Part shown: positions 9,366 to 32,000 of the stretch, one piece after another
Position numbering within the stretch: position 1 is the stretch's first letter
Layout of the letters: every line of letters begins with the position of its first letter
Source of the DNA: an archaeon
GTDB taxonomy: Archaea > Iainarchaeota > Iainarchaeia > Iainarchaeales > 1-14-0-10-31-34
Direction: 5' to 3'
DNA length: 32,000 nt
NCBI GenBank assembly: GCA_024277355.1
Contig: JAJRVL010000011.1
Location: 1 to 32,000 of the forward strand
Notes under the pieces: model-generated
Told to the model about the DNA's origin: nothing
Seen by the model: only the letters and a program-made list of their open reading frames with translations
The model's database searches: none
Program-made: the position numbers and the translations under genes

Positions 9366-9366
9366 T

Positions 9367-10845
9367 TTATTCACCGCATACCCCAATAGTATAATCAGTT
9401 AAAATAAAATTTCCTTTAGAAGAATCAGAAAAAACAGGAATTAAAGTGTTAATTGTAAAAGATAAAAGATAAGTAAAAGGACCAAAATTTAATTTTTGGT
9501 TTGAAAAAATTAATTGGTTTTTGCCGAAAGAAAAATTAAAAAAACCATTATAAAAAGAATAAGAACCTGAATCAGAGTTAATTGTTTCAGTTGAAGTAAT
9601 TAAATCTTTTTCTAAAATAAAATTATTAAAATTTCCTGCAAGAAGATTTCCTGTAAAAGTTTCTGCTGTCCCAGTTAAAGAAAAAAGTATGTCTGTTTCA
9701 GTTGAACCTGACTCAGAATAACAGTCACAATTTAATTTTGGCTGAATCTGAGTTCTTGGTCTTTCACAAACAGCAGGTTCTCCATTAGAAAGTGAATTCA
9801 TTAATTCAATTGAATCATTAGAATAAATTCTTACTCTTTCTGCTTTACATATCTGGAAAGTTAAATTCTTTAAATCACATCCTTTAAATGAAACAATCCC
9901 GTCATTTAATTCACTTGAATCAGAATTAATTCCAGTTCCCTTAAAAGCAGTAAAACCCAGAGAAGGATTTCCTGTAATTATCATTTCTTTTAAAATGATT
10001 TTTCCTGCACTTTCAGCTAAACCGTTTTTTCCATCTGCACCGTCCACAGCATAGTTAGTTCCACTGTCTTCATCATAAACTTGTCCGCTTGCGCCTGTTC
10101 CTCCAATTCCACCGTTTCCGCCATTAACATTAAAGAAAATTCTTGAAGTTGAATCAGCAAAAACTAATTTTTCAATTAAAATTTCTCCTCCAGCTGAACC
10201 ATTTCCTCCATTAGTTGCATCTAAATGCTGACAACTGCTGTTGCTGTCAAAACCATTTCCTCCAGTTCCTCCGCTTCCACCGGAAGAATCAATAGTTAAA
10301 CTTGAATTGCCCAAAACAAAAACTTCTTCTTGAATTTCAATATTTCCTGTTTTTCCTGCATTACTTCCTGCAGTTAAAGAACAGGCAACTTTTTTTCCAT
10401 TTAACCCGTTTGCTCCAACAGAATTAATTTCAGCTGAATTTTTTGCAGTTAAATTTCCTTCAATAATTAAATTAAGTGAATCTTTTAATGAAGAATTATT
10501 AAGATTTAATTTTCCTCCATCAATAATTATTCCATTAATACTTGAATCAAAAATCACATAATTTGAAGGATTAGCAGAAGAAAAAGTACAGTCTGCTTCT
10601 GCTCCACAAGGAAGCAAAGTTGTTCCTGAAGGAATTACAATTGAATAAATGTTTTCAGGAGTTGAATCAATAACAGAAATTGACTCAGAAAAAAAAGGAA
10701 TTAAACCTGAATTTAAAGTAAAAGTTACATTATTTCCTGAAACTGTTTTAGTGTAAGCAGAATTAACTCCTAATAAAATTGAATCATCAGAATAAGCAAA
10801 AGAACCCAAAAATAAAAATAAAAATAAAAATAATTTTTTCTGCAT
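9367..10845 (-). CDS. Secreted glycine-rich (GGxGG) repeat protein, paralog B
   Basis: The signal peptide is MQKKLFLFLFLFLGSFAYS. Gly tracts include SSGGSGGTGGNG, NGGNGSAGGE and NGGNGGIGGTGASG. The architecture is the same as the downstream paralog, and its 3' end carries the SD of the next gene. Confidence 0.8.
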   Translation of the reverse strand: MQKKLFLFLFLFLGSFAYSDDSILLGVNSAYTKTVSGNNVTFTLNSGLIPFFSESISVIDSTPENIYSIVIPSGTTLLPCGAEADCTFSSANPSNYVIFDSSINGIIIDGGKLNLNNSSLKDSLNLIIEGNLTAKNSAEINSVGANGLNGKKVACSLTAGSNAGKTGNIEIQEEVFVLGNSSLTIDSSGGSGGTGGNGFDSNSSCQHLDATNGGNGSAGGEILIEKLVFADSTSRIFFNVNGGNGGIGGTGASGQVYDEDSGTNYAVDGADGKNGLAESAGKIILKEMIITGNPSLGFTAFKGTGINSDSSELNDGIVSFKGCDLKNLTFQICKAERVRIYSNDSIELMNSLSNGEPAVCERPRTQIQPKLNCDCYSESGSTETDILFSLTGTAETFTGNLLAGNFNNFILEKDLITSTETINSDSGSYSFYNGFFNFSFGKNQLIFSNQKLNFGPFTYLLSFTINTLIPVFSDSSKGNFILTDYTIGVCGE

Positions 10846-10911: not shown

Positions 10912-12786
10912 TTAGTAATTTCCTAAATTAGTCTGCACAGGAGTAAAATGCTTAAAAGACTTTAATTCTTTTTCACTTAAGCCTAATTGTTTTTTTATTT
11001 TAAATGCGGTTTCATTTCCTATAATTCCGGCTAAATCATTTAATTCAGTTTTTTTTAGCAAAGCAATTGAATTAATATTTGAATTAAATAATTTTCTTGC
11101 TCTAACCCTTCCAATTCCTTTTAATTCAGTTAAAACTAATAATTCTTCTTTTATGCCGTATTTTATTCTTTTTCTTAATTTTGAAATCAAAGAAATAACA
11201 GATTTTTTTCCTGAAATTAAAGCTAATTCAGAAAAGCAATATAATAACCAGTCAGCAATCATTAATTTTGAACGAAGTATTCCGGGCTGAACATTAAATT
11301 CTTTCCTTAAAGTTTCTTCAGGAACTTCACTAATCCATTTGTTTAGCAATAAAGCAGAATTATATTTTTTTAATAAAGAAATATCAGAATAAAAGTCATC
11401 TGAATCAATTGGAAGAGAATCTGCTTCAACATTCATCTGTTCCCATAATTCTGTTTCTTTTGCTCTTGGAACAGAAAATAAAGGAAAAAATTCAAAAGCT
11501 GAAGTCAGCAAAAATAAAAAAGAAAAATTATTTAAATCTTTTTTAAATGAATCTAAAATCATTTTTGCAGTTAAAGGATCCAAAAAAAGTTCTGCAATTC
11601 TTTTGCCGATTAAAGTTGCCTTAAAAGATTTTTCATTTCCTTCAATAAACTTTAATTCCTTTAATTCAATTAAAACAGAATTAACTTTCAAAAATAATTC
11701 ATCTAATCCATTAAACTGAAAAGCATAAAAAGTCTTGGAAAAAAATTTTTCTAATGACTCTAAATCAAAAGCAAAACCAGTTGCAATTGCAGCTAAAACA
11801 TGGGTTCTTAAAACAGGTTCAATTCCTAATTTAGATGAAACTTCTTCTACATCCCCTAAAATAAATTCTTCTTTTAATTCATCCATTTCAAATTCATTCC
11901 CTGCAATTAACACGCTTTCCCCAACAGAATCAAATTTAGGCCTTCCGGCTCTTCCGCTCCATTGTTTATATTCTCTTACAGGAATTTTCTGATGCCCAAA
12001 AGCAGTATAACGAAAAACAGAAGGAATAATTACACGAAACGCAGGCAAATTAACTCCTGCTGCTAAAGTAGGCGTAGCAGAAATAACTTTAATTAAATTT
12101 TTTTTAAATAATTCTTCAACAACATCTCTTTGCTTTGCAAGCATTCCTGCATTATGAAAAGCAATGCCAGACTTAACTAAATTAGATAAAATTCTGCATT
12201 GTTCTGTTGGGTTTTCTAAGGCATTAAGAATTTCAAGAGATTTCTTAGACAAAAACTCTTTTTCCTTTACTAATAATGTCTTTTCCACTGTTTTTGCTAG
12301 TTTTTTTGCCATGCCAACAGTTCTTGGACGAGTATTGCAGAAAACTAATGCCTGCTTATTTTTTTCTAACGCATCTTTAACTAAGGCTTCAACTGGATCA
12401 GATATTGGATTAATTTTTTGTTTTCCTCTTAAAAAATGAATTTGGTTTTCAAAAAAAACTCCTTCATTTAATTTTACAGGACGAAAAGAACTTTCAATTA
12501 ATTTTGCATTAAGCCATTTGCTTAATTCTTTTGAGTTAGGGATTGTTGCACTTAAGCCCAACACCTGAATTTCAGGATTTAAAATTAAAAGTTTTGTTGT
12601 CATTATTTCAATTGTCGGACCTCTATCTGAATCAATTTCATGGATTTCGTCAATTATAAGCAGACCTATTTGTTTAAGCCATTCTGATTTATGCCTTAAT
12701 AATGATTCAGTTTTTTCATAAGTAGTAAAAATAACATCATAATTATGCAGATATTTAGAAGAAGAATCAAAGTCTCCTGTTGACAT
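10912..12786 (-). CDS. hel308: Hel308/Ski2-like DNA helicase, C-terminal 624-aa fragment (frameshifted from the N-terminal fragment)
   Basis: Helicase motifs are present: DEIH (LLIIDEIHEI), SAT (LGLSATIPN), ATPTLAAGVNLPA and QWSGRAGRP, plus a C-terminal HhH-like LKGIGRVRARKL. It begins at STGDFDS, which normally follows motif Ia. Confidence 0.9.
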   Translation of the reverse strand: MSTGDFDSSSKYLHNYDVIFTTYEKTESLLRHKSEWLKQIGLLIIDEIHEIDSDRGPTIEIMTTKLLILNPEIQVLGLSATIPNSKELSKWLNAKLIESSFRPVKLNEGVFFENQIHFLRGKQKINPISDPVEALVKDALEKNKQALVFCNTRPRTVGMAKKLAKTVEKTLLVKEKEFLSKKSLEILNALENPTEQCRILSNLVKSGIAFHNAGMLAKQRDVVEELFKKNLIKVISATPTLAAGVNLPAFRVIIPSVFRYTAFGHQKIPVREYKQWSGRAGRPKFDSVGESVLIAGNEFEMDELKEEFILGDVEEVSSKLGIEPVLRTHVLAAIATGFAFDLESLEKFFSKTFYAFQFNGLDELFLKVNSVLIELKELKFIEGNEKSFKATLIGKRIAELFLDPLTAKMILDSFKKDLNNFSFLFLLTSAFEFFPLFSVPRAKETELWEQMNVEADSLPIDSDDFYSDISLLKKYNSALLLNKWISEVPEETLRKEFNVQPGILRSKLMIADWLLYCFSELALISGKKSVISLISKLRKRIKYGIKEELLVLTELKGIGRVRARKLFNSNINSIALLKKTELNDLAGIIGNETAFKIKKQLGLSEKELKSFKHFTPVQTNLGNY

Positions 12787-12800
12787 AGTTGATTTAATGT

Positions 12801-13055
12801 TTAATTCAGAATACTTTTTTTGAATTCACGGAAATGCTCTGACGCCAAAGCCTTTAACGGACAGGCATAAATAACTTTTTTTTTCTTATTTATGACTGAA
12901 TTTAATGCAGTTAATTCTCCAATTAAAGTTTTTCCTGAAGCAGTAGGAGAAGAAACAATAACATTTGAATCAAATAAACCAGCTTTAATTGCTTTTTCCT
13001 GCATTGGATTAAATTCAATTGAATTGATTTCTTTTACTTTTTGAATTACATCCAT
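12801..13055 (-). CDS. hel308: Hel308/Ski2-like DNA helicase, N-terminal 84-aa fragment (Q motif and Walker A)
   Basis: From ATG 13055 the sequence is MDVIQKVKEINSIEFNPMQEKAIKAGL...SSPTASGKT...ACPLKALASEHFREFKK. The 5' part of the ORF-track call (13056..13184) looks like spurious extension. The fragment ends 14 nt before the C-terminal fragment, in a different frame. Confidence 0.85.
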   Translation of the reverse strand: MDVIQKVKEINSIEFNPMQEKAIKAGLFDSNVIVSSPTASGKTLIGELTALNSVINKKKKVIYACPLKALASEHFREFKKSILN

Positions 13056-13158
13056 TAAAGAAAGAATAAGAAAAGAAAATAAAAAGGATTTGACAGTTAA
13101 CTGCAGGTGAAAAACATAATAATTAACTTTAAAACTGTTTCTACATAATAGTTTTTTT

Positions 13159-13284
13159 ATGGTTTCAGAAAAACAAAAAAACACATTTCTAGTTTTAGTT
13201 ATCCTGCTTGTAATATTTATTTCATTGTTTTTTGCTTACCAAAACGGAGTAATAGGAAAAGCAATAATTTCAGGTTTTAGTTAA
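13159..13284 (+). CDS. Possible 41-aa single-TM micropeptide (speculative)
   Basis: ATG 13159 to TAA 13282-13284 encodes MVSEKQKNTFLVLVILLVIFISLFFAYQNGVIGKAIISGFS, a charged N-terminus followed by a 20-aa hydrophobic helix. No nearby SD is present. It lies in the 225-bp gap upstream of hel308. Confidence 0.2.
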   Translation: MVSEKQKNTFLVLVILLVIFISLFFAYQNGVIGKAIISGFS

Positions 13285-21943: not shown

Positions 21944-23584
21944 CTAATTTATTTCATAAATTCTTGTTTCTTTATTCTCAAAAATTTTATCAAAAGAATT
22001 ACTATCATTAAATTTTCTTAAATGCGTTGCAGGTTTCATTAATTCATTTGCAGGCTGAACCATTAAAGAATCCATGTCTTTAGTTAAAAGCAAATGCGTT
22101 GCTTCATACTGATTTAATCTTAATACAGCCTGAAAAATATTTGAATCAAAATAAATAGGAATAATTTCATTTTCCATATAATCACCAAACTCTAATTTAG
22201 CATTAACAACACTTAATCCTGTTTTTAATCCAACTGCTTTAGCCATTTTAACATCGCTGTAAATTCTTGATTTTTCATTTAAGTTTTCTTTAATCCATTG
22301 AATTGAATTCAAATGCTTTTCATTAAACTGTTCATATTTATATTGAGGAGTTTGAGTAAAAAATACAAAAGGAATTAATAAAACAAAAACAAAAAATACA
22401 GCTAAAAAAGAATGCTTTAGAAAACTTGTTTTCATTTCATTTAATCCAATAAGGCAAAGTATTGACAAAAAAAAGAAAATCATTGATGCTCCTCTGTTAG
22501 AAATAAAAGCAAAAGAAAAAAGCATGAAAAGCCCTATAATAGAATAAAGTATAGCTTGAGAAAAAATAAAAGATTTAATTAAATTGTTTTTTAAAATAAA
22601 AGATTTTATTTTATTGAAATTAAAGATTAATAAGCTTAAAACAACAAAAAAAGGAATAAAATACCTTAAAATACTGTAAGAGAAATCTTTTTCTAAATAA
22701 TATTCAGAAAAAGGCAGATTAGGAAACAAAAAAGAAGGCAAAAAATTCATTTCAGAGAAATTATATATTAAAGCACCAATATTCCATGAAATCTGATTTA
22801 AAATATTAACAAAAGAAAAGACAAGAAGCAAAAGAAAAATTAACAAAAAAGAATTCAAATGAATCTGCTTAACTTTAATTTCCTTTTTTTTAAAGAAAAA
22901 ATAAATCAAAAAAAACAGCAGTAAAGGAAGAATACTTAATGCAAAAGCACTTTTATCTGAATAAACTGAAAGAACAGAAAAAAACAGCAGTAAAAACAGG
23001 TTTTTTGATTTAAAAGAAAAACCTTGTTTAAGGAATTTCACTAAAAAATACAATGACATTGCCCCGAAAATTCTAACAAAAAACCAGCCGTGAATTGAAA
23101 TTTTATAGTACAATGGTTCAAAAGGAAATAGTACTACAAGCAAAGACAAAGTTAAAGCAAGAATATCTTTCCTGAATATTTCTCTGAATAAAACAAAAAA
23201 AGCCAAAGCTGCAATAAAAATCAAAAAATAAAAATGATTAAATAAAAAATACAAATCCAAGCCTGATAAAAAATTAAATATTGCCGCTGAAAGAACAGGA
23301 ATAGTAAAAAAAATAAGGTTTTTTTTTGAAAAAAACCTGTCAAAAAAATAGAAGTTAGTTGTATTTTCATTTCTTAAAAAAGACCATCCGGAAAACCTAA
23401 TGGCCTCAAATTTTTCACCTATTGTATCTGCTTTATTTTTTTCTTTAATAAATTCTGCTGCACTAAAATGCCTAAACATATAAGGGTCTCTATAAAGCGA
23501 AGTGGGAGAAGTCAATTCAATAACTAACCCTGAAATAAGACAAAATAAAGCCAGTAGAAAAATAATTTTAGTTTCTTTTTTCAT
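21944..23584 (-). CDS. Polytopic membrane protein with C-terminal soluble domain, GT-C-like glycosyltransferase or polymerase candidate
   Basis: It has about 12 or more hydrophobic helices followed by a soluble tail of about 130 aa. It overlaps the GT1 gene by 17 bp (23568..23584), which implies co-translation. The fold assignment rests on architecture alone. Confidence 0.45.
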   Translation of the reverse strand: MKKETKIIFLLALFCLISGLVIELTSPTSLYRDPYMFRHFSAAEFIKEKNKADTIGEKFEAIRFSGWSFLRNENTTNFYFFDRFFSKKNLIFFTIPVLSAAIFNFLSGLDLYFLFNHFYFLIFIAALAFFVLFREIFRKDILALTLSLLVVLFPFEPLYYKISIHGWFFVRIFGAMSLYFLVKFLKQGFSFKSKNLFLLLFFSVLSVYSDKSAFALSILPLLLFFLIYFFFKKKEIKVKQIHLNSFLLIFLLLLVFSFVNILNQISWNIGALIYNFSEMNFLPSFLFPNLPFSEYYLEKDFSYSILRYFIPFFVVLSLLIFNFNKIKSFILKNNLIKSFIFSQAILYSIIGLFMLFSFAFISNRGASMIFFFLSILCLIGLNEMKTSFLKHSFLAVFFVFVLLIPFVFFTQTPQYKYEQFNEKHLNSIQWIKENLNEKSRIYSDVKMAKAVGLKTGLSVVNAKLEFGDYMENEIIPIYFDSNIFQAVLRLNQYEATHLLLTKDMDSLMVQPANELMKPATHLRKFNDSNSFDKIFENKETRIYEIN

Positions 23585-24713
23585 TTAATGCTTCCTCAAA
23601 TAAATTAATTAGTTTTTTTATTTCTTTTTCTGAAGAAAATTCTTTTGCTTTTTTTAATGAATTTAATCCCATTTCTTTTGCTTTGCTTTTGTTTGTTAAA
23701 ATAAAAGAAATTGCTTTAGTCAATTTTTTCGTGTTTTTTGGTTCCACAAGAAAACCATTAAATTTGTCTTTAATTACTGCAGGAATTCCTCCAACAGTAC
23801 TTCCTATAACTGGCTTGGAAAAAGCCATTACTTCCAATAAAACTAAACCAAATCCTTCTGAATCATTAATTGAAGGAAGAATTAATGTTTCACATTCAGA
23901 ATAAAAAAACAATAATTGTGATTGATAAACAGTTCCTGCAAAAAAAACATTTTTTTCTATTTCAAGATTTTTTGTTAATTTCTTAAAATAATTAATATTG
24001 TTGCCTTCTCCTATAACCACAAGCATTAAATCAGGAAAAGCGTTTTTAAGTTCAGCAACTGACTTAATTAAATAATTTAATCCTTTGTATTTTTGTCCTT
24101 TATTTAACGCTCCTACAAATAAAATAATTCTGTTTTTAGAAAAAATCTGTTTTTTGGTTTTTAAAGTGAATTCATTTAAATCAATAAAAGGATGAATAGC
24201 CATAGTTTTTCCTGAAAAAGATTTAAGCAAAAGAGATTTTTTTGCATAATAATCAGATAAAACAATTATTTTTCTGCTTAACTCAAAAGTTTTTTTTAAA
24301 ATAAAAGAATAATAAAAATTAAGGAAAATTTTTTCAGTGAATTTTTGTTTTACATAATCATTGAAATAAAACAAGAAAAAAGGAATATTTTTTTGTTTTG
24401 CAATTCTTGCAGCAGAATCAGCCATAAAAGGAGTGGATAATGAACCTGCAATTATTTCAGGTTTTTCTTTTTCAATTACTTTCTTTAAAGAAAAATTCCA
24501 GAAATTAAAAGGCGTATTAGAATACTTAAACATGTAATTTTCTGAATAAATTTTTATTCCATTAATATTTCTTGCAGTCTTAGTTGAAGTAAAAACAATT
24601 ATTTCATGATTTTTTTTCTTTAATTCTCTGCATATTCTAAGAATATGGTTTTCTGCCCCTCCAATAAAAGGAAAGAATTCAGGGGAAACAAACAAAATCT
24701 TCATTGACATCAC
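23568..24713 (-). CDS. Glycosyltransferase, GT1 Pfam family (GT-B fold, CAZy GT4-like)
   Basis: The N-terminal MKILFVSPEFFPFIGGAENH and the C-terminal EX7E region PSINDSEGFGLVLLEVMAFSKPVIGSTVGGIPAVI are both present. Confidence 0.88.
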   Translation of the reverse strand: MMSMKILFVSPEFFPFIGGAENHILRICRELKKKNHEIIVFTSTKTARNINGIKIYSENYMFKYSNTPFNFWNFSLKKVIEKEKPEIIAGSLSTPFMADSAARIAKQKNIPFFLFYFNDYVKQKFTEKIFLNFYYSFILKKTFELSRKIIVLSDYYAKKSLLLKSFSGKTMAIHPFIDLNEFTLKTKKQIFSKNRIILFVGALNKGQKYKGLNYLIKSVAELKNAFPDLMLVVIGEGNNINYFKKLTKNLEIEKNVFFAGTVYQSQLLFFYSECETLILPSINDSEGFGLVLLEVMAFSKPVIGSTVGGIPAVIKDKFNGFLVEPKNTKKLTKAISFILTNKSKAKEMGLNSLKKAKEFSSEKEIKKLINLFEEALNEKRN

Positions 24714-24772: not shown

Positions 24773-25054
24773 ATGAATTCAGAGGAAAGACTGTTTATTG
24801 CATTAATTAAAGGCAATGTTACAGCAAAAGATTATGAAAACATTGACTGGAATGAATTTATTAAACTGGCTTATTACCACAGAATAACTGGTTTTATTGC
24901 TAAAAAATTAAATAAAAAACTTATTTCAGAAAAAACAATAAAACAAATAAATAAATTAAATAAAATAATTATTTCAAAAAACCTTATTTTGAACAATGAA
25001 ATGATTTCATTATTTAAAGAATTTAAAAAAAAAGAATTGAATTTATTGCAATAA
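24773..25054 (+). CDS. Uncharacterised nucleotidyltransferase family (NTP_transf_5-like), N-terminal fragment
   Basis: The N-terminal helical region contains LAYYHRITGFIAKKL. It terminates just after an A9 run, and the family's KG.AL...YP..R..DiDlL core continues in the -1 frame. Confidence 0.7.
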   Translation: MNSEERLFIALIKGNVTAKDYENIDWNEFIKLAYYHRITGFIAKKLNKKLISEKTIKQINKLNKIIISKNLILNNEMISLFKEFKKKELNLLQ

Positions 25055-25059
25055 AAGGA

Positions 25060-25818
25060 ATGGCATTAAATAATTTTATTTATCCTGAAAGTTTTTTACG
25101 GGTTTCAAGCGATATTGATTTTCTGATAAAAGAAAAAGAATACTCTGAAATAAAAAAAACTACAGAAAAAAAAGGATTTAAGGAAAGTAACTTCTGGTTA
25201 TGGGAAAAACAGTTGTTTTATCACCATTACCCTATACTTGAAAAAAATGTTAATGGATTAAATTGCATGATTGAACCGCATAAAGAATTAATTTTTCCTG
25301 TTAATCCTTTTGAAATAGATTTAAAAGAAATATGGCGTGACAGAATTGAAATTAATGATATTTTTATTCCTTCAATTGAAGATTCACTTATTTTAACTGC
25401 ATTAAGTTCAGTTTATCAGCATAATTTTTACGGAATGTTTGAAGGGTTGATTGATGCAAAAAATCTTATGAAAAAAAACATTAATTACACAAAACTAAAA
25501 GAAAAAACAGAAAAATATAATGTAATTGAAATAATGATTTATTTTAATGAATTAATAAAAGAAATTTTTGGGAATGGAATTAAAGGAATAAAAGAATTAG
25601 AAGAAAAGGCAGATAAAAAAAAGCTGGATTATTTAAAGGAAAAATCATTAGAAAAAATAATTAAAATTCAGGATAAAAAAGAAATTGATTCTGAAATAAT
25701 CAAAAACAGGTTTTATTGGGCTAAAGGAATAAAACAAAAAACAAAAGTATTAATTTTTGTTTTAAACCATAAACTTTTATCTGCTGTGTGGAAAATAAGA
25801 AAAAGAAAAAAAATTTAA
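25060..25818 (+). CDS. Uncharacterised nucleotidyltransferase family (NTP_transf_5-like), C-terminal fragment
   Basis: The frame is open from 25027 and reads (KKRIEFIAIKG)MALNNFIYPESFLRVSSDIDFLIKEKEY...FYHHYP...IEPHKELIFP, matching the PF14907-type signature as I remember it. Confidence 0.75.
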   Translation: MALNNFIYPESFLRVSSDIDFLIKEKEYSEIKKTTEKKGFKESNFWLWEKQLFYHHYPILEKNVNGLNCMIEPHKELIFPVNPFEIDLKEIWRDRIEINDIFIPSIEDSLILTALSSVYQHNFYGMFEGLIDAKNLMKKNINYTKLKEKTEKYNVIEIMIYFNELIKEIFGNGIKGIKELEEKADKKKLDYLKEKSLEKIIKIQDKKEIDSEIIKNRFYWAKGIKQKTKVLIFVLNHKLLSAVWKIRKRKKI

Positions 25819-25852
25819 TAACTTTGTGTTAAATATAATTAAAGCTGATTTT

Positions 25853-26734
25853 ATGGAAATTTTTAACGCAAAAATATCCTTAGCAGGAAAAACAATTTTA
25901 ATTAAAACAAACAACAAAAAACTAAATACAATATTAAAATCATATTTTCCTGAATTCTCTTCAAAAAAAAAACCTAATTTAACAATAGAATATATTTTTA
26001 AAGAAGGGAATTTTGATTTAAATTTATTTATTGTAAAAGATGAATGGCGGTCAAAAGAAAAAATAAAAGAAACAAAAAAAAATTTGTTTTTATTTAAACA
26101 CAAAAAAGGAAAAAATGGAATGCTTATTACAGGTTATTTAGATTTAAACCGGAAAAAAAGCAAAATGAAAATAATTTCAGATAAAAATTTTTTTTGGGGT
26201 GCGTTTGTTTTTAATTTTGCTAAATGCATTTCAATTTACTTTAATGAATTTAATGCAAATTTAATTCATTCAGCAGCAATAGCAGAAAAAAACAAGGGAT
26301 TTATGTTTATTGGAAAAAATAATGCAGGAAAAAGCACAATACTTAGAATTTGCCCAGAAGCATTAAATTTAGGAGAAGACCTAAACATTTTGTTCAAAAA
26401 AGAAAAAAAATTCTTTATTCAAGCATTCCCTTTTATTATGATGATTACTGCAATAAACAAAAAAAATTCGCAACCAGTGGAAATACAAAATATTTTTTTC
26501 TTAAAAAAATCAAAAGAATTAAAGCTTAAAAAACTAAGAAAAACAGATGCAATAACCTTGATGCTTGAAAACGATATTCAGGGAACATTTAATTTCCAGC
26601 AAATAAAGACAGAAAAAAGAATATTGTTGTACCACAAACTTTTTTCAGAAATTTCTGCATTTAAAATTAATTTTCCTTTAGAAAAAAAGTTATGGAAAAA
26701 AATCAAAAAAGAACTGAAAAAACAAAAAATTTAA
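25853..26734 (+). CDS. HPr kinase C-terminal-domain-like P-loop kinase (HprK-related)
   Basis: LIHSAAIAEKNKGFMFIGKNNAGKSTILRI...LNLGEDLNILF matches the HprK-like pattern H.sav...g.g.l..G.sG.GKST followed by an acidic DD/ED. Start is ATG 25853; GTG 25826 is an alternative. Confidence 0.7.
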   Translation: MEIFNAKISLAGKTILIKTNNKKLNTILKSYFPEFSSKKKPNLTIEYIFKEGNFDLNLFIVKDEWRSKEKIKETKKNLFLFKHKKGKNGMLITGYLDLNRKKSKMKIISDKNFFWGAFVFNFAKCISIYFNEFNANLIHSAAIAEKNKGFMFIGKNNAGKSTILRICPEALNLGEDLNILFKKEKKFFIQAFPFIMMITAINKKNSQPVEIQNIFFLKKSKELKLKKLRKTDAITLMLENDIQGTFNFQQIKTEKRILLYHKLFSEISAFKINFPLEKKLWKKIKKELKKQKI

Positions 26735-26768
26735 AATTAGATTCACTTTAAACAAATAAGGAGATTAA

Positions 26769-27026
26769 ATGAATAAAGCAAAAAATATTGAATCAAGAGA
26801 AATTGACGGGGAAACAATTCTTGTCAGCCCTAAAAAAAACGAGTTCTTTATTTTAAACAAAACAGGAACATTTATATGGAAAAACATAAACGGAAAAAAC
26901 ACTGAAAAAAATATAGCAGAAAAATTAGCTAAAAAATACAATTTAAAAGAAAAAATTTCTTTAGCAGACACAAAAAAATTAATTAAAAAACTGGCTTCAA
27001 TGAAGCTTATTACAAAAAAAAATTAA
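26769..27026 (+). CDS. Stand-alone PqqD-family protein (RiPP recognition element-like)
   Basis: The 85-aa sequence is ESREIDGETILVSPKKNEFFILNKTGTFIWKNINGKNTEKNIAEKLAKKYNL...DTKKLIKKLASMKLI. It has the typical PqqD layout (3-strand wing followed by helices). AAGGAG at 26758-26763 lies upstream. Confidence 0.8.
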   Translation: MNKAKNIESREIDGETILVSPKKNEFFILNKTGTFIWKNINGKNTEKNIAEKLAKKYNLKEKISLADTKKLIKKLASMKLITKKN

Positions 27027-27047
27027 TTGTTCATCTTAAAAAATTCT

Positions 27048-28121
27048 TTATTTATTTACACTTTCTTTTGCGATTTTCTTTTTGTTTTTAAGTTCAGTTT
27101 TTGCAATTTTCTGTAATTCAATATCTTTATTTAATTCATTTAAAAGCATTTTATTAATGCTTTTTTTTTCATAAGGACTCAAACTAAAAACACAAAAATC
27201 ACATAAACTTGCATACCCTTGTAATACTTTTTTTACTTTATTCACTTTTTTAAGTTTGTTTTTTTTTGCGAGATCAAAAATAAAAGCAGGGCCTTTATGT
27301 CTCAAATAAAAAACAAAAATATTTTTTCTGTAAGCTTCAATTGATTTTTTATGTGAATCAGTATTAAAATCTGCAAACTTAAAAGCCGTATTTGATCCTT
27401 CAAATCCATTACAACAAACAAACATTTTACCATCGTGATTTATTGTTGGTTTTCCTAAGAAAGGGCATTTTTGTTTAAGCAGTTTTTTATTTGAAATAAA
27501 ATAGGTTTTATTAGAGACATTTTTAGCTGCTCTTCCTGCCGGAACAAGAATTTGACTTAACACATGAAAAGGCTTTTTATCTGCATGTATTTTAGTAAAA
27601 TATTCTTTATTATTTACTAAAAAATCCAAAAAAGAATAATCTTTTGAAACAGCAACCCTTAAAATAATTTGAAGTTTTTTATATTTCCTTGCAGCATCAA
27701 AAATATTAATTATATTTTTTTCAGGAATAAATTTAACGTGAAAATTATCTGTGCTTATATTAAGACACATTAATCCTGCAGAAACAAGCTTTGAAAGCAT
27801 TTTTTCTGTTTTTTCAGGACTTGAACCCCAAAAACCGTTGCTTATAAGTTTAGGGTTTACTTTGTTTTTTTTTGCAGCAGAAAAAAGAGCAATCATTTCA
27901 TCAAAATATAATAAAGGTTCTCCTCCTGTAAACCCTATTTCTTTTATTCCTTCTTCTTTTAACAAAGGCAAAACACTTAAACAAGTATTCAAATCTACTT
28001 TAGATGTTTCAAAAGGCCCGCAGTTATTAATACAATGATCACATTTGATATTGCATTTTTTTGTGTAAATAAATTCCAAAGAAATAATTGGATTAAATAT
28101 CTTTAAATTTTTAGTATCCAC
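27048..28121 (-). CDS. Radical SAM enzyme with C-terminal partial SPASM/twitch-like Cys motif
   Basis: CNIKCDHC is the CX3CX2C motif, and GFTGGEPLL is the SAM-binding GGE motif. The C-terminal motifs are C-x11-G-x4-CC (CPFLGKPTINHDGKMFVCC) and CDFC. Start is GTG 28121; there is no in-frame ATG upstream of the cluster motif. Confidence 0.85.
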   Translation of the reverse strand: MDTKNLKIFNPIISLEFIYTKKCNIKCDHCINNCGPFETSKVDLNTCLSVLPLLKEEGIKEIGFTGGEPLLYFDEMIALFSAAKKNKVNPKLISNGFWGSSPEKTEKMLSKLVSAGLMCLNISTDNFHVKFIPEKNIINIFDAARKYKKLQIILRVAVSKDYSFLDFLVNNKEYFTKIHADKKPFHVLSQILVPAGRAAKNVSNKTYFISNKKLLKQKCPFLGKPTINHDGKMFVCCNGFEGSNTAFKFADFNTDSHKKSIEAYRKNIFVFYLRHKGPAFIFDLAKKNKLKKVNKVKKVLQGYASLCDFCVFSLSPYEKKSINKMLLNELNKDIELQKIAKTELKNKKKIAKESVNK

Positions 28122-28253
28122 AAAAAAAAAAGAGAATGAGAACTGTTTAAAAAATTATTGAATAAACAGCAACAAGTTAGGAAACCCTTATAAAAAAACA
28201 ATAGCATATTTATTTAAATATAAACTGAGTTATATTTTAGAGGAAGTATTAAT

Positions 28254-28358
28254 ATGACTTATGAAAAACCAGCTATAAAAAAACTTAATATAAAAACAGC
28301 ATCAAGCGGAGGGACTACCTTCCTAATAGAGGTTGCACCAAGCACTACTTCAGCTTAA
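28254..28358 (+). CDS. Candidate RiPP precursor peptide (34 aa), not in the supplied ORF track
   Basis: ATG 28254 to TAA 28356-28358 encodes MTYEKPAIKKLNIKTASSGGTTFLIEVAPSTTSA. AGAGGAAG lies 8-15 nt upstream and an AT-rich TATA-like tttaaatataaa lies at 28213-28224. The ORF is divergent from the radical SAM gene (132 bp) and 25 bp upstream of the next gene. It has a YxxPxI leader motif, and the core-coding DNA is visibly GC-richer than its surroundings. Confidence 0.55.
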   Translation: MTYEKPAIKKLNIKTASSGGTTFLIEVAPSTTSA

Positions 28359-28383
28359 TTCATAAATTAAATATGTTTTGCTA

Positions 28384-29346
28384 ATGACTAAAAAAATTTT
28401 TATTCTGGCTTTAATTCTGCTCATATTTTTTTCAGGATGCACTAAAAAAACAGAAGAATCTGAAAACCAAAAAATAGACTTAAAAGAATATTCTGCGGAT
28501 TTTGAAAAAAACACAATTGAATTTACTGTATTTTCTGAAAAAGAAAATCCAAAAGTATTATTTGAAATTTTTAACTCAGAAAAAAAACTTAAATGTTTTA
28601 AATATTTTAATTTAAAAAAAGGAAAAAATCTGCTTTTAATTAACTGTCAGGAAATAACTTCAAAAAATTTATTTGTTTCAGTTACTCCTTCAAAAACAGA
28701 AACAGAAGAATTTGAAATTAAATTAAATCCAAAACCAAAACTTGAATTAAAAAAAGGATTTAAATACACATTTATTCAAAAAGCCCCTGAATATAATCTT
28801 GTTTTTGATTATGAAGTTTTTGTAATTGACAAAAATGAAGAGTTAATTAAAGTACTGTCAAAAACAGCAATAAATGAAAAAGACACATTTGATTTGCTTT
28901 TAATTGACAATAATTATTTTATTTATTCAAGCGGGCTTAAAGACACCTGTGAAGAGGCTTTTTCTTCTGAATTAACAAGAAAGTTTAATGACGATGAATC
29001 TAACATAATTTATCCTTTTATATTTTTTTATTATCAGAATAACGGCAGTTTTTTATTAAATGAATTTATTGAAAAAAGAAATTATGAAAAATATTTTCCT
29101 AAAATTAAAAAAACTGTTAAATTAACTTTAATTCAGGAAACACTCTTAAAAGGAAGAGAAACTTATGAAATAAATTTTAAGGTTTCTGAGACTCCTGCTT
29201 TTTTAGCGAATATTCAGTCAAAAGATCCTAAAATACTTCTTTATTACAAAACAGCACATACTGAATTTGAATTCAAGAAAGAAATAAAAGAAGAATTTGA
29301 TGAAGAAAAATACGGTTGTCTCAGAACAAATTTAGTGGTTGAATGA
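28384..29346 (+). CDS. Lipoprotein-like secreted hypothetical protein (321 aa)
   Basis: MTKKIFILALILLIFFSGC is a signal peptide with a lipobox-like SGC. The rest is Lys/Glu/Phe-rich with no motif I recognise. Its stop overlaps the next start (ATGA at 29343-29346). Confidence 0.7.
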   Translation: MTKKIFILALILLIFFSGCTKKTEESENQKIDLKEYSADFEKNTIEFTVFSEKENPKVLFEIFNSEKKLKCFKYFNLKKGKNLLLINCQEITSKNLFVSVTPSKTETEEFEIKLNPKPKLELKKGFKYTFIQKAPEYNLVFDYEVFVIDKNEELIKVLSKTAINEKDTFDLLLIDNNYFIYSSGLKDTCEEAFSSELTRKFNDDESNIIYPFIFFYYQNNGSFLLNEFIEKRNYEKYFPKIKKTVKLTLIQETLLKGRETYEINFKVSETPAFLANIQSKDPKILLYYKTAHTEFEFKKEIKEEFDEEKYGCLRTNLVVE

Positions 29347-29756
29347 AAGATAAATCTATTGCAGAAGCCATTAAAATATTTAAAGAAAAAAATTCAGAAA
29401 AAAAAATTAAATTAAAAACAAAAGGAAAAAGCATGTATCCTTTAATTAAAGATAATTCTGAAATTGAAGTGAAAGTTTCAACTGAAAAACTGAAAAAAGG
29501 AGATATAATTCTATACTTTAAAAATAAGAAATTTTTTGTACACAGATTACTTAAAAAAAAAGGAAAAAAACATTTGCTTAAAGGAGATAATAACTGGGAC
29601 TTTGATGAAATTACAAAAGAAAAAAATATTATAGGAAAAGTTGAAAAAATAAACGGAAAAAAAACAGATTCAATTGGCTTTGAATTAATTAAAATGCCAA
29701 TTATTGCTTATTCTTATTTTACTGGAATTATTTTAGAACAAAGGCGGAAAAAATGA
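29343..29756 (+). CDS. Sec11/S26B-type signal-peptidase-like serine protease lacking the usual N-terminal TM anchor
   Basis: KGKSMYPLI provides the catalytic Ser in the SM.P box. FFVHRLL has His where bacterial SPases have Lys, and LKGDNNWDFDE is the KGDNN box of archaeal/eukaryal Sec11. GDIILY is also present. The N-terminus is hydrophilic, and the only hydrophobic segment is C-terminal (MPIIAYSYFTGIIL-EQRRKK). Confidence 0.7.
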   Translation: MKDKSIAEAIKIFKEKNSEKKIKLKTKGKSMYPLIKDNSEIEVKVSTEKLKKGDIILYFKNKKFFVHRLLKKKGKKHLLKGDNNWDFDEITKEKNIIGKVEKINGKKTDSIGFELIKMPIIAYSYFTGIILEQRRKK

Positions 29757-30226
29757 AAATATTAATTACAGGAACTCCTGGAACAGGAAAAACAGAAATT
29801 GCAGAAATACTGAAAAAAAAATTAGGGTATAAAGTAATAAATGAAAAAGATTTTGCATTGAAAAGCAAAAGCGGAAAGAAAAAAAATAAAGAAATTGAAA
29901 TTGACGCAAAAAAATTTGAAAAAAAAATTAATGAATTCTTAAAAGAAAAAGACAACTTAATAATTGAAGGCCATGTTTTATGCGAAATGAAAATTAAAGT
30001 TGATTTAGTGTTTTTACTTAGAACTAAATCTGAATTACTGGAAAAAAGACTGAAAAAAAGAGATTATTCTGAAGTAAAGATTCTGGATAATGTTTTCTGT
30101 GAAAAAACAGGTTATTGCAAAGAAAAATCACTTAAAAATTACAAAAAAGTGATTGAAATAAAAAACGAGAAAACTTTAAACAGTTCCATACAAAAAATAA
30201 TTAAAAAAATAAAGGGGAAAAAATGA
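29753..30226 (+). CDS. Fap7/AK6-type adenylate kinase-like NTPase (small-subunit rRNA maturation factor family)
   Basis: MKILITGTPGTGKTEIAE is the P-loop. IIEGHVL, VFLLRT...LEKRLKKRDYSE.K..DN..CE match the Fap7/hCINAP pattern. It shares ATGA overlaps with both neighbours. Confidence 0.8.
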   Translation: MKILITGTPGTGKTEIAEILKKKLGYKVINEKDFALKSKSGKKKNKEIEIDAKKFEKKINEFLKEKDNLIIEGHVLCEMKIKVDLVFLLRTKSELLEKRLKKRDYSEVKILDNVFCEKTGYCKEKSLKNYKKVIEIKNEKTLNSSIQKIIKKIKGKK

Positions 30227-31365
30227 AGAAAATTGTTTTTATTTTAGTTTTATTGATGTTAAGTTTTGTTAATGCTGAAACCATTAAAGAGGAAACTTTT
30301 GCTTTGATTGGTTATTCAGATTTTTTAGTTGAAGGAACAAACCAAAAACAATGCAATGAAGTTATTTTTTATGATGAGTTTAATGGAGAAGAATTCACAA
30401 TAATTTCAATTCATTCTGAATTTGTCCCAAAAATCAAAGGAGAAGCAAATATTACTGTTCACTTAAACAATGAATTAATTTCAGTTATTGATTCAGAAAC
30501 TGAATTCGGAAGAATTATAATTAAAAAAGAAAAATTAAAGGAAAAAAACATAATTAAATTATGTGCTTTTACTTCTGATGCAATAACAAAAATTTCAGTT
30601 AAAGATGATTCAACAATAGGGAATTACAAAACAGCTTTTTTTCCTGAAGGAAGCCTTACAAAAAAAGTTTTATCTGAAGAAATAATTATAGGAAAAGAAA
30701 TTACAATTAAGACTTCATTAAAGAATTATGGGAACGAAAAAACTTCCATTGAAATCATTGACGGAGATGCAGATAGGGAAGACATTGAATTAATCAAAGG
30801 AAAAAGTTCATTTAAAGGAGAAATTCTTTCAGGAGAAGAAATTTCATTTGAATACACTTACAGATTAAAAGATGAAAGAACAAGAATTCTTCCTAATGCA
30901 AAAGCTTACTATTTGAATGAATTCGGAGAAAAAAAAGAAATTGAATCCAACTACCCTGAAATATTTCCTTTAACAAAACAGGCATTAGAACCAATAATAA
31001 TGCTGAAAAAACAAATTAATTTTATTGGAGAAGAAAGCGAAATAGAAATTGTAATAATAAACAATTCAGAAAATACAGTTTATAATGCAGAAATCAAATT
31101 AATTTCTGAAGTTATTACCGGTGAAAAAACAACTGAATTTGAATCAATCCAGCCAAAAGAAACAGTTTACTTTAAAACAAAAGCAAAATCTAATTCAGCA
31201 GGAGAATTTGAATTAAAATGCGAATTAAGTTACGGCAAAGAAAAAACTTTATGCGATAAAACAACAATCCTGTTTGAAGAAAACACAATAGACCAAAAAC
31301 TGATTATTGGAAGTGTAATGGTTTTAATTGGAATAATAATTTACAGTTACCTTTATTTAAGATAA
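30223..31365 (+). CDS. Secreted protein with C-terminal TM anchor (S-layer/CARDB-like beta-sandwich repeats, tentative)
   Basis: The signal peptide MKKIVFILVLLMLSFVNA and the C-terminal anchor LIIGSVMVLIGIIIYSYLYLR are present. Two segments (ITIKTSLKNYGNEKTSIEI... and IEIVIINNSENTVYNAEIKL...) resemble archaeal COG1361/CARDB-type domains. Confidence 0.65.
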   Translation: MKKIVFILVLLMLSFVNAETIKEETFALIGYSDFLVEGTNQKQCNEVIFYDEFNGEEFTIISIHSEFVPKIKGEANITVHLNNELISVIDSETEFGRIIIKKEKLKEKNIIKLCAFTSDAITKISVKDDSTIGNYKTAFFPEGSLTKKVLSEEIIIGKEITIKTSLKNYGNEKTSIEIIDGDADREDIELIKGKSSFKGEILSGEEISFEYTYRLKDERTRILPNAKAYYLNEFGEKKEIESNYPEIFPLTKQALEPIIMLKKQINFIGEESEIEIVIINNSENTVYNAEIKLISEVITGEKTTEFESIQPKETVYFKTKAKSNSAGEFELKCELSYGKEKTLCDKTTILFEENTIDQKLIIGSVMVLIGIIIYSYLYLR

Positions 31366-32000
31366 ATTATTTACACATCTGTTTTTCATTAAAGAATCAG
31401 AAATCATATTGCATAAACTTATGTCTTTATTTTTTTCTGCAATTCTTGTAATGCAGTCATATTTAATTGAAGGTAAAGAAAAAGCAGTGCATAAATCTGC
31501 ATTGCCTATTGATAAAGCAGCATTAAACTTGCAGGTTTCTGTTGCACTTCCTTTAATTAAACTGCATATTTCCAGGTCTTTTTCCTGTGCAGCTAATTCA
31601 ATTAAACAGGAATTTTGTTCTATTGATTCAGAAAGAGTACTGCAAATGCTTGGATCAGAAGCATTTAATGCAATTTCCTTAATACAGGAAGCCTGATCAA
31701 ATTTAGTTATAAGTTCACTGCATTTACTTAATTCCTGTGAAACAACCACATATTCTTTCCAGACTAGTCTTTTGCATTTCTCTGAATCAAGATTAACTAA
31801 CTCCTCACATAAAATATCCTTATTTGATTCAATTGCTAATTTTTGTAAACATTCATCTTTTTCCTGAATTAAAGTTTTATCCATGCATGATTCATATTTT
31901 TCTTCAGGAGTTAAAGGAATTTCTTCCTGGATACAATCTTCTTCTGAAGCAACAATACTTCCATCAGGACAAGTAAAAGTTTTTTCTTCAGTTGTTTTGG
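31357..32000 (-). CDS. Cys-pair tandem-repeat protein (5' end outside the window)
   Basis: The frame stays open from ATG 31884 upstream to the window edge (...TFTCPDGSIVASEEDCIQEEIPLTPEEKYESC-MDKT...). It contains 16 Cys with alternating spacing, mostly about 10-11 and 13 residues (with a couple of longer gaps), so the unit is about 26 aa. It overlaps the convergent gene end by 9 bp. Confidence 0.7.
   Translation of the reverse strand, partial: KTTEEKTFTCPDGSIVASEEDCIQEEIPLTPEEKYESCMDKTLIQEKDECLQKLAIESNKDILCEELVNLDSEKCKRLVWKEYVVVSQELSKCSELITKFDQASCIKEIALNASDPSICSTLSESIEQNSCLIELAAQEKDLEICSLIKGSATETCKFNAALSIGNADLCTAFSLPSIKYDCITRIAEKNKDISLCNMISDSLMKNRCVNNLS

Follow-up and report, generated by a model that had tools for sequence, protein, structure and literature searches.

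Does the compact group of genes at positions 24773-29756 of a stretch of the archaeal contig JAJRVL010000011.1 encode a pathway for a peptide that is made on ribosomes and modified after translation (RiPP), and if so, to which known systems is it related? We analysed 32,000 nucleotides of this contig (the window), for which an initial annotation made from the sequence alone had proposed a RiPP-like system composed of a PqqD-type RiPP recognition element (RRE), an HprK-like kinase, a nucleotidyltransferase, a radical S-adenosylmethionine (SAM) enzyme and a hidden peptide gene. All of these genes were found, and the RiPP-like reading is supported by the family profiles, by the conservation of the small open reading frame (ORF) and by the co-occurrence of the genes in other genomes. 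By analogy to characterised systems we consider it fairly likely that the locus represents a RiPP pathway, i.e. a cyclase-less relative of the phosphorylated lasso peptide clusters, to which the Iainarchaeota branch has added a probable epimerase. The window has a G+C content of ~25% and encodes several archaeal markers (Cdc6/Orc1, NAC, the termination factor FttA/aCPSF1, a proteasome subunit and an archaeal-type helicase). The nearest named relative of the locus is found in a metagenome-assembled genome of Candidatus Iainarchaeum (DPANN), its radical SAM protein being 51% identical and lying in the same neighbourhood.

The candidate precursor MTYEKPAIKKLNIKTASSGGTTFLIEVAPSTTSA is free of Cys and consists of a leader of approximately residues 1-19 followed by the probable core GTTFLIEVAPSTTSA, no other such ORF being present in the window. 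Each of the related loci examined has a homologous small ORF next to its radical SAM gene. Such ORFs were read in L001-L005, L085, L086, L099 and L100, and nine loci entered the comparison; the corresponding peptides are MKVYKKPSIKKLNVKMGLTGGTIGIIWSVSTTST (L001), MNYEKPKIKVLNIKIANAAASISTKIVASSSTST (L002 and L003), ..RYEKPSIKKLNINMRQAHGATGIGPADTIG (L004), MEYKKPLIRKINIKSVGASLNFTVTQSAGIVQT (L005), MAYEKPTIEKLNIRIGITGSTIGTIFDPGASATTST (L085), MDYEKPSVKKLNIKFAHITGTAIAKTTPTVDSSQIVVPDASLA (L086), MKKKKYKKPSIKKLSIKAARGATGIATNV (L100) and MEKKKYLKPKIEKTNIKLFINVIGGATSNICEVFDCTTI (L099). Comparison of these sequences reveals a leader block of 12 residues starting at the Tyr (Y-x-K-P-x-I-K-K-L-N-I-K) with a mean pairwise identity of 0.69, compared to 0.12 for the remainder. 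The codon pairs within this block show 139 synonymous-only versus 134 nonsynonymous differences, and synonymous changes being as common as nonsynonymous ones suggests selection acting on the protein. The peptide gene keeps its radical SAM partner in rearranged loci: in L085 both genes were relocated as a unit to a position between the genes of an AAA_18 protein and a 380-residue protein, and an inversion of the peptide gene in L100 has placed it directly upstream of the radical SAM gene. A TATA-box-like element, TTTAAATA, aligns in five of six orthologous upstream regions at 35-45 nt before the ATG, and AAACCC and TTTAAATA elements in the short stretch that separates the divergently transcribed radical SAM and peptide genes (28180-28253) are common to L002, L005, L085 and L086; judged from this conservation, both are probably promoter elements. 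The 34-residue ORF is a real, conserved gene with the signature of a RiPP precursor, confirming the peptide gene postulated before and showing a leader/core pattern over nine loci.

In composition, the cores stand out by a high content of Ile, Val and Leu and by being free of Cys, with the exception of the L099 core, which contains two Cys residues. Three peptides of the bacterial cassettes described below end in Ser and four archaeal ones in Thr. Most archaeal peptides show a small-small-Thr/Ser motif 17-18 residues after the Tyr (16-21 over all nine), marking the probable junction of leader and core.

The leader contains a motif which connects it to the PqqD-type protein. The stand-alone RRE of 85 residues proposed initially is firmly assigned by its Pfam score (Table 1; cut-off 23.4 bits), and it also matches the lasso PqqD family NF033530 (5e-10). 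With the family profile of this protein, the best matches in the PDB are TbiB1 (5v1u, 5e-14), followed by two further lasso chaperones (9x8z and 9x90) and TfuB1; PqqD proper scores 2e-3 only. In the window peptide the leader reads Y3-E-K-P6-A-I8 with identical spacing in all orthologues, and the spacing of Y-x-K-P-x-I in the archaeal peptides is exactly that of the lasso leader motif YxxPxL, which occupies positions -17 to -12 in lasso precursors (PMC10368454). These profile comparisons show the PqqD protein to be most similar to lasso B1 proteins, and the leader to carry the Y-x-x-P-x-[ILV] motif that B1 proteins recognise. In Bradymonas, the B1 protein accelerates phosphorylation by the kinase and aids leader removal (PMC10368454).

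Downstream of the peptide gene, a lipoprotein-like protein and a small Ser/His peptidase are encoded, for which the initial annotation had assumed the role of mere neighbours. Our data suggest a different assignment, i.e. both are co-conserved components: homologues of the peptidase adjoin the kinase gene in ten loci (L088, L090, L092, L096, L097, L099, L100, L101, L102 and L103), and after the cassette both low-GC lineages encode homologues of the lipoprotein in which the lipobox is kept, the lipoprotein itself having no Pfam or NCBIfam family. Besides its PF00717 match, the peptidase reaches 44 bits with the archaeal signal peptidase I family TIGR02228, below the cut-off of 51.85, and its profile finds SEC11C (2.6e-8) and SEC11A (2.7e-7) as best solved relatives. 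Its catalytic motifs are G-K-S30-M-Y-P, V-H67-R and K-G-D82, of which G-x-S-M-x-P, H-R and G-D are kept in 12 archaeal and bacterial homologues. No N-terminal membrane anchor was identified, the only hydrophobic stretch being a weak C-terminal segment at 110-132. Signal-peptidase-like enzymes favour small residues at positions -1 and -3. By analogy we read the enzyme as a dedicated, cytoplasm-facing leader peptidase acting in place of lasso B2, with the inferred cut site at the small-small-Thr junction. A housekeeping signal peptidase was considered as a candidate and rejected on account of the missing N-terminal anchor and the recurrence of the enzyme inside the cassette in bacteria.

The coordinates of all elements of the locus are compiled in Table 1.

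Table 1. Elements of the locus with their positions in the window.
Element	Position	Strand	Evidence or remark
PF14907 (NTP_transf_5) nucleotidyltransferase, frameshifted	24773-25818	+	96.9 bits once frame corrected
A9 homopolymer, frame lost; A10 would restore	25025-25033	+	direct sequence reading
ScmC-family P-loop kinase with predicted phosphoenolpyruvate carboxykinase (PEPCK)/HprK fold	25826-26734	+	PF27840 (precomputed); His148; P-loop G163, G168-K169-S170-T171
Stand-alone PqqD-type RRE, lasso-B1-like, 85 aa	26769-27026	+	PF05402, 49.4 bits
YydG/EpeE-family radical SAM protein	27048-28121	-	convergent; TIGR04078, 139.5 bits; PF04055, 49.9 bits
TATA-box-like element TTTAAATA	28213-28220	+	41 nt upstream of peptide ATG
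GAGGAAG	28240-28246	+	between TTTAAATA box and peptide ATG
34-aa precursor peptide MTYEKPAIKKLNIKTASSGGTTFLIEVAPSTTSA	28254-28358	+	homologues in nine loci
Lipoprotein-like extracytoplasmic protein	28384-29346	+	signal peptide, lipobox FFSGC
Sec11/S26B-like Ser/His peptidase (S24/S26), 137 aa, candidate leader peptidase	29343-29756	+	PF00717, 36.8 bits

It is conceivable that the system has no peptide product at all, the enzymes acting on a protein or on cell-surface glycans, with the small ORF being incidental or regulatory and the peptidase a general signal peptidase. This would agree with a GT4 glycosyltransferase and a multi-transmembrane DUF2206-like protein flanking the cassette, with the glycosylation-type island upstream in L099 and L100 and with archaeal signal peptidase I being the best family of the peptidase. 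We regard it as highly improbable, since the small ORF is under protein-level selection and shows the leader/core pattern, since lasso-type RRE and cognate leader motif form a specific peptide-recognition pair, and since the peptidase has no N-terminal anchor as found in signal peptidases and recurs within the cassette in bacteria, which presumably possess their own LepB-type signal peptidase.

Assuming a peptide pathway, we analysed which modifications its enzymes may install. The kinase is assigned to the ScmC family PF27840 in precomputed Pfam domains, as are all relatives returned. Its NCBIfam matches are weak, i.e. HprK_rel_B with 9.6e-7 and ScmC with 1e-5 (25 bits, cut-off 125), both scoring far under the respective cut-off. 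An exhaustive HMMER search returned 1,851 representative relatives, only two of them below 1e-30, and the His (H148) and the Walker A residues G163, G168 and K169 are invariant across 28 diverse relatives. The kinase profile matches ATP-dependent PEPCK over the His, the P-loop and the DD motif; against the PDB, a sequence profile built from four sequences gave no meaningful match. We obtained an AlphaFold 2 model with a predicted local distance difference test score (pLDDT) of 87.1 using an alignment of 16 sequences, an earlier model from four sequences (pLDDT 33) having been discarded. Foldseek searches with this model retrieved PEPCK (2pc9, 2e-8) and HPr kinase/phosphatase (1knx, 2e-6; 1ko7 and 1kkl near 1e-4). 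As judged from the predicted structure, the designation HprK-like is correct at the level of the fold, further supported by the invariant His and P-loop; at the level of the sequence, PF07475 (Hpr_kinase_C) gave no match at E<=1 in the Pfam scan.

Kinase-driven dehydration is established in class II-IV lanthipeptides, and Ser and Thr make up 28-45% of the Iainarchaeota-type cores, the window core ending with the tail STTSA. The kinase might in this way activate Ser/Thr for elimination to yield dehydro-amino acids, leaving an accessory role to the nucleotidyltransferase. We judge such lanthipeptide-like chemistry to be very unlikely, as the Pfam and NCBIfam scans found no lyase domain and as the phosphorylation products of its characterised relatives on lasso precursors are stable mono- or polyphosphates (PMC8498205; PMC10368454).

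The nucleotidyltransferase raises the question of whether the locus is functional in this organism. The initial annotation treated it as an NTP_transf_5-like enzyme; the family assignment stands, with the correction that the gene carries a frameshift in this sequence. The gene is split over two ORFs, 24773-25054 (PF14907 positions 2-73) and 25060-25818 (positions 81-249), by a one-base frameshift in the A9 run. Read with A10, it encodes a protein of 348 residues matching PF14907 over model positions 2-249 of 249, well above the cut-off of 31.2 bits, and aligning gap-free and colinear with the intact orthologues of 354-365 residues in L001, L002, L005, L099 and L100, which at the A9 site read K-K-(R/K)-I-(D/E)-F uninterrupted. 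The D-x-D motif (SSDIDFLI) is intact; the initially quoted motif, IAIKGMALNN..., extends over the frame that lies upstream of the second ATG.

If the frameshift were real, the full product would no longer be made and the locus would be a decaying or inactive copy. The loss of frame within the A9 run fits this, and so does the observation that, out of 59 further homopolymer runs with at least eight bases in the window, most leave genes undisrupted, i.e. that errors are not rampant. Decay is nevertheless distinctly unlikely in our view: all remaining genes are intact, both halves of the nucleotidyltransferase still match the Pfam model well, the orthologous enzymes are intact, and a housekeeping-type gene is split likewise at a poly-A run. 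The latter encodes a Hel308-like helicase (10912-13184, minus strand) and is divided into ORFs of 127 and 624 residues at an A7 run near 12815, the halves matching positions 1-68 and 89-164, respectively, of the DEAD model. With two genes of the window broken at poly-A runs, wrong homopolymer lengths in the assembly or genes prone to slippage are suggested, and because of this we lean towards a length error or slippage, and not a dead gene, as the cause of the break in the nucleotidyltransferase. Regarding the chemistry of this family, L087 (4244-6545) encodes a PF14907 domain fused to a domain resembling histidyl-tRNA synthetase (HisRS; class II aminoacyl-tRNA synthetase core), with an Asp/Glu racemase gene immediately upstream, which hints at amino-acid-related chemistry for the nucleotidyltransferase.

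The combination of these enzymes is closest to that of the phosphorylated and phosphoglycosylated lasso peptide clusters, i.e. those of paeninodin, pseudomycoidin and Bradymonas bsf, in which HPr-kinase homologues phosphorylate the precursor and a PF14907-type enzyme adds a hexose to the phosphate (PMC8498205). Both systems share a discrete PqqD/B1 protein, a YxxPx[L/I] leader, an HPr-kinase-like kinase acting on the linear precursor with the help of B1, and a PF14907-type nucleotidyltransferase (PMC8498205; PMC10368454). They differ in that the present locus shows no cyclase and no B2 among the scanned ORFs and hence no lasso fold, in that it encodes a Sec11-like Ser/His peptidase and, in the Iainarchaeota branch, a radical SAM enzyme, in its DPANN host, and in that many of its cores offer no acidic residue for the macrolactam (Asp/Glu at position 7-9). 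The scanned long ORFs of the window gave zero matches to Asn-synthetase-like cyclases, transglutaminase-like proteases and ABC exporters, in agreement with the initial annotation, which had noted the lack of lasso cyclase and B2 protease in the 32 kb. The called genes or ORFs read in the 20-kb neighbourhoods around L001, L099 and L100, and those read in the bacterial cassettes including L101 and L102, gave neither cyclase nor B2.

An ordinary lasso cluster with cyclase and B2 encoded elsewhere in the genome might be proposed on the grounds that RRE, leader motif, kinase and nucleotidyltransferase are all of lasso type and that cleavage of the window peptide 17 residues after the Tyr would give Gly1 and Glu7. 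This core could thus offer an acidic residue, but four of nine cores (L001, L002, L005 and L100) are without any Asp or Glu, a different, co-conserved peptidase fills the role of B2, and neither cyclase nor B2 was found among the ORFs read in the window, the neighbourhoods and the bacterial cassettes mentioned above, making this explanation extremely improbable. A true lasso cluster was rejected as a candidate after testing these ORFs for cyclase and B2.

The radical SAM enzyme is a homologue of the YydG/EpeE family. Its best family is TIGR04078 (YydG epimerase; E 1.6e-40), the next family reaching 45 bits only; the match covers the full length (protein 20-319 versus model positions 8-297 of 309), and its profile retrieves the YydG/EpeE entries 8ai1-8ai6 from the PDB with E 2e-34. 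The ScmE and ScmF models were not among its top matches. Eight Cys residues are invariant in seven homologues, i.e. C23-x3-C27-x2-C30, C219, C236-C237 and C307-x2-C310. The C236-C237 pair aligns with P-C-C-S of YydG (Cys222/Cys223), the upstream Cys-Pro being kept too, and in YydG Cys223 is the H-atom donor (PMC13012085). The initial annotation had described a radical SAM/SPASM enzyme, of which the radical SAM domain is supported by PF04055 and the Pfam SPASM domain is not: PF13186 gave no match at E<=1 in the window protein, nor is it present in the precomputed domains of seven close homologues. The absence is explained by the T-SPASM/twitch type of the YydG/EpeE family, YydG carrying a single auxiliary cluster in its "T-SPASM" domain (PMC13012085).

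By analogy, epimerase activity is probable. The epipeptide systems of Bacillota (YydF/EpeX with YydG/EpeE) share with the locus the YydG-family radical SAM enzyme with CX3CX2C motif, the pair aligned to Cys222/Cys223 and the C-terminal Cys residues for one auxiliary cluster, as well as a short, Cys-free core rich in aliphatic residues. In contrast to these systems, the locus has neither the EpeP membrane protease nor the EpeAB transporter, possesses RRE, kinase and nucleotidyltransferase, and its radical SAM enzyme scores below the family cut-off and has no evident Asp210. Epipeptides have been described as limited to Bacillota (PMC13012085). As an alternative, the RiPP cassette might be real with its YydG-like enzyme performing other chemistry, e.g. 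forming a C-C or C-O cross-link or functionalising another C-H bond of the Cys-free core. The score of 139.5 bits lies far below the YydG equivalog cut-off of 300, marking the enzyme as a homologue, not an equivalog; the identity to YydG is low; for YydG Asp210, the proposed proton relay, no clearly conserved counterpart is seen and none 4-5 residues past the Cys-Pro, the sole invariant Asp being D230 of N-x-D-G, which aligns to YydG Asp216; and the nearest bacterial relatives sit in different multi-radical-SAM clusters (L006). Weighed against the full-length YydG match with its wide distance to the next family, the conservation of the H-atom-donating Cys pair and upstream Cys-Pro, and the abundance in the cores of Ile, Val and Leu, on which YydG acts as an epimerase, we consider other chemistry unlikely, and a YydG-like epimerisation remains the preferred assignment.

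The distribution of the genes shows which parts of the system belong together. Starting from the radical SAM enzyme, only one of 80 loci scanned (L005) also carries kinase, PqqD and nucleotidyltransferase, so that viewed from this side the link is limited to the lineage. The wide distribution became apparent by anchoring the locus search on the kinase; the genes of each locus are named here in the order in which they occur. In a second low-GC lineage with 34% G+C and different flanks (L099 and L100) we found nucleotidyltransferase, in L100 an additional B12-type radical SAM enzyme, kinase, PqqD, a YydG-like radical SAM enzyme, peptide, and homologues of lipoprotein and peptidase, the YydG-like enzyme being 35% identical to that of the window (E 2e-60). 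The truncated low-GC contig L087 carries the HisRS-like/nucleotidyltransferase fusion, a B12-type radical SAM enzyme, kinase and PqqD. Bacterial contigs with 65% G+C (L088 and L090) encode peptidase, kinase, PqqD, the peptide ..KRKYEPPEILSQEVFETTALACGK..KNS and a radical SAM/SPASM enzyme, in L088 followed by the nucleotidyltransferase; the radical SAM protein of the L088 cassette does match PF13186. Another bacterial contig (L097) carries nucleotidyltransferase, PqqD, radical SAM enzyme, the peptide ..KKVYVKPSIDM..., kinase, peptidase and an ABC exporter, and L101, also bacterial, a four-gene operon of nucleotidyltransferase, kinase, PqqD and peptidase without radical SAM enzyme. On plasmid pNP243 of Butyrivibrio fibrisolvens D1 (NZ_CP146964.1; L102) lie nucleotidyltransferase, ABC genes, kinase, the peptide MKKAYVKPELK..., PqqD and an S24/S26 peptidase, and kinase, peptidase and PqqD are found together in a metagenome contig (L096) and in Prevotella sp. 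oral taxon 299 (NC_022111.1; L103).

Across these cassettes, kinase, PqqD and Sec11-like peptidase are constant and PF14907 is usually present, and the radical SAM partner is interchangeable, being YydG-like, SPASM-type, B12-type or missing. Wherever a precursor can be recognised in a cassette, its leader is of the Y-x-x-P-x-[ILV] form. The recurrence of kinase, PqqD and peptidase in unrelated genomic contexts bears out their co-occurrence, and it revises the view of an archaeal system: the locus is not specific to archaea and represents a single branch of a cassette that is widespread in archaea and bacteria.

Two members show layouts of their own. In L099 (10874-12376), the core NICEVFDCTTI (Cys-x4-Cys) lies beside a radical SAM/SPASM enzyme of 442 residues with CefB, the 'Cys-every-fifth' maturase, as best family (292 bits); here the same cassette seems to have received a thioether-type module by exchange. 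The Butyrivibrio peptide of L102 has 57 residues, is rich in Cys and carries a YVKPEL leader, and it is accompanied by an ABC exporter in split form and by a two-component system, a layout resembling the true lasso clusters of the genus minus cyclase and B2. The RefSeq labels of the Butyrivibrio genes are generic only ("PqqD family protein", "S24/S26 family peptidase").

Is such a combination new? Curated but uncharacterised NCBIfam families come close to it. The SynChlorMet families (TIGR04248-TIGR04251: ScmD, ScmC, ScmE, ScmF) likewise combine an ScmC-type HprK-like protein with PqqD and radical SAM proteins; the kinase and PqqD of the window remain below the equivalog cut-offs (ScmC as given above; ScmD 32.7 versus 100 bits), and SynChlorMet has two SPASM enzymes compared to one YydG-type enzyme here. 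HPr-rel-A and HprK-related kinase B (TIGR04352, TIGR04353, TIGR04355), also uncharacterised, join an HprK-related kinase to a PqqD-family chaperone; the scores stay far below the cut-offs (28 versus 200 bits), and members of the bacterial cassettes match HprK_rel_A with 1.6e-8 and PqqD_rel_X with 2.4e-4. We found no paper on the SynChlorMet or HPr-rel families or on this enzyme combination, the survey of archaeal peptide systems by Makarova et al. 2019 being outside the coverage of our search. The claim of an undescribed combination holds for the literature found; families joining HprK-like, PqqD and radical SAM proteins are already curated in NCBIfam, i.e. such cassettes had been noticed by its curators. 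New is the architecture of known enzyme families within a RiPP pathway, the constituent families themselves being known. Compared to the initial annotation, the system is distributed more widely and has one additional component.

Several further genes and elements surround the cassette. The GT4 glycosyltransferase and the DUF2206-like protein of 546 residues (21944-24713, minus strand) show much stronger conservation than the cassette itself, with E values from 1e-150 to 1e-180. In the second lineage, a larger glycosylation-type island with GT2, DegT, B12-type radical SAM enzyme and methyltransferase lies upstream (L099 1-9000; L100 1-7550). On the other side, the AAA_18 small kinase-like gene and the gene of the 380-residue protein (29753-31365, plus strand) are start/stop-coupled to the peptidase gene, the latter protein having a signal peptide, a C-terminal transmembrane segment and a weak TRAP_beta match. 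Both are kept in Iainarchaeota-type loci and missing from the positions after the peptidase in L099 and L100, and as they are not kept there they are probably mere neighbours. Further away, an ORF of 2034 residues (1684-10845, minus strand) with a weak Big_1 match only is followed by overlapping ORFs of 538 and 492 residues without Pfam family, the three resembling an operon for large proteins without assigned function, and a Cys-rich ORF of 175 residues (31357-31884, minus strand) has no Pfam family. PADLOC models gave only generic P-loop and radical SAM matches and no specific defence protein, and an anti-phage defence system was rejected for lack of a specific-model match. The Rfam scan of the window yielded no matches and no tRNA genes were found in it; its repeats are AT-rich chance matches, and a scan for sigma-70 promoters and terminators, not meaningful for an archaeon, stayed at background level.

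Our data are consistent with a model according to which PqqD would bind the leader and present the peptide to the remaining enzymes. The PEPCK/HprK-fold kinase would phosphorylate a Ser or Thr hydroxyl, either of the conserved Thr/Ser just past the leader/core junction, comparable to Ser3 in BsfA, or of the Ser/Thr-rich C-terminal tail, comparable to the C-terminal Ser of paeninodin, and the PF14907 enzyme would attach to this phosphate a further group derived from a sugar or a nucleotide, comparable to pseudomycoidin. As a branch-specific addition, the YydG-family enzyme would abstract a C-alpha hydrogen and return one from the conserved Cys pair, resulting in D-Leu, D-Ile or D-Val in the core. 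The Sec11-like peptidase may then cleave off the leader at the small-small-Thr junction, which follows the Tyr at a distance of ~17-18 residues and corresponds to the site where lasso precursors are cut, and no macrolactam would be formed.

Several points weigh against this model. Gene content, conservation and fold assignments are what our analysis establishes, and every enzymatic step is proposed by analogy (PMC8498205, PMC10368454, PMC13012085). The nucleotidyltransferase is frameshifted in this window and PF14907 has never had its biochemical activity demonstrated in vitro (PMC8498205; PMC10368454), and for the radical SAM enzyme there are the sub-threshold score and the lack of a clearly conserved Asp210 counterpart discussed above. 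The window peptide ends in Ala and not in Ser, and the cores of L004, L099 and L100 are poor in Ser/Thr. No exporter is encoded in the 32-kb window, the peptidase might conceivably serve a reduced genome as its housekeeping signal peptidase, and in Iainarchaeota-type loci the flanks are syntenic too, making gene order there weak evidence alone.

Going beyond the individual locus, we tentatively suggest a new RiPP class as a sister of the lasso peptides, a proposal that we hold to be possible and somewhat short of probable. Its defining enzymes would be a PqqD-type RRE of the lasso kind, a kinase with PEPCK/HprK fold and a Sec11-like serine leader peptidase, usually accompanied by PF14907, and the class would produce linear phospho-decorated peptides with interchangeable radical SAM modules, and would occur in DPANN, Bacillota and Bacteroidota. 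The Iainarchaeota branch would then represent the first archaeal D-amino-acid (epipeptide-like) RiPP, possibly serving host interaction, as suggested by the pathway being kept in a very small symbiont genome.

As a summary, the locus joins two RiPP enzymologies so far studied separately, i.e. the leader recognition and phosphorylation of lasso systems and the radical epimerisation of the YydG type, together with a third element, a Sec11-like Ser/His peptidase, which as RiPP leader peptidase is unreported in the papers searched. The related cassettes in Butyrivibrio fibrisolvens D1 pNP243 and in the Prevotella record offer an experimental route in cultured organisms, gut bacteria among them. 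If our reading is true, the kinase and nucleotidyltransferase regarded as lasso "tailoring" enzymes would form the core of an independent, widespread peptide pathway, and YydG-type chemistry would reach beyond Bacillota into archaea. DPANN genomes being minimal, the retention of a natural-product pathway in one of them would be notable.

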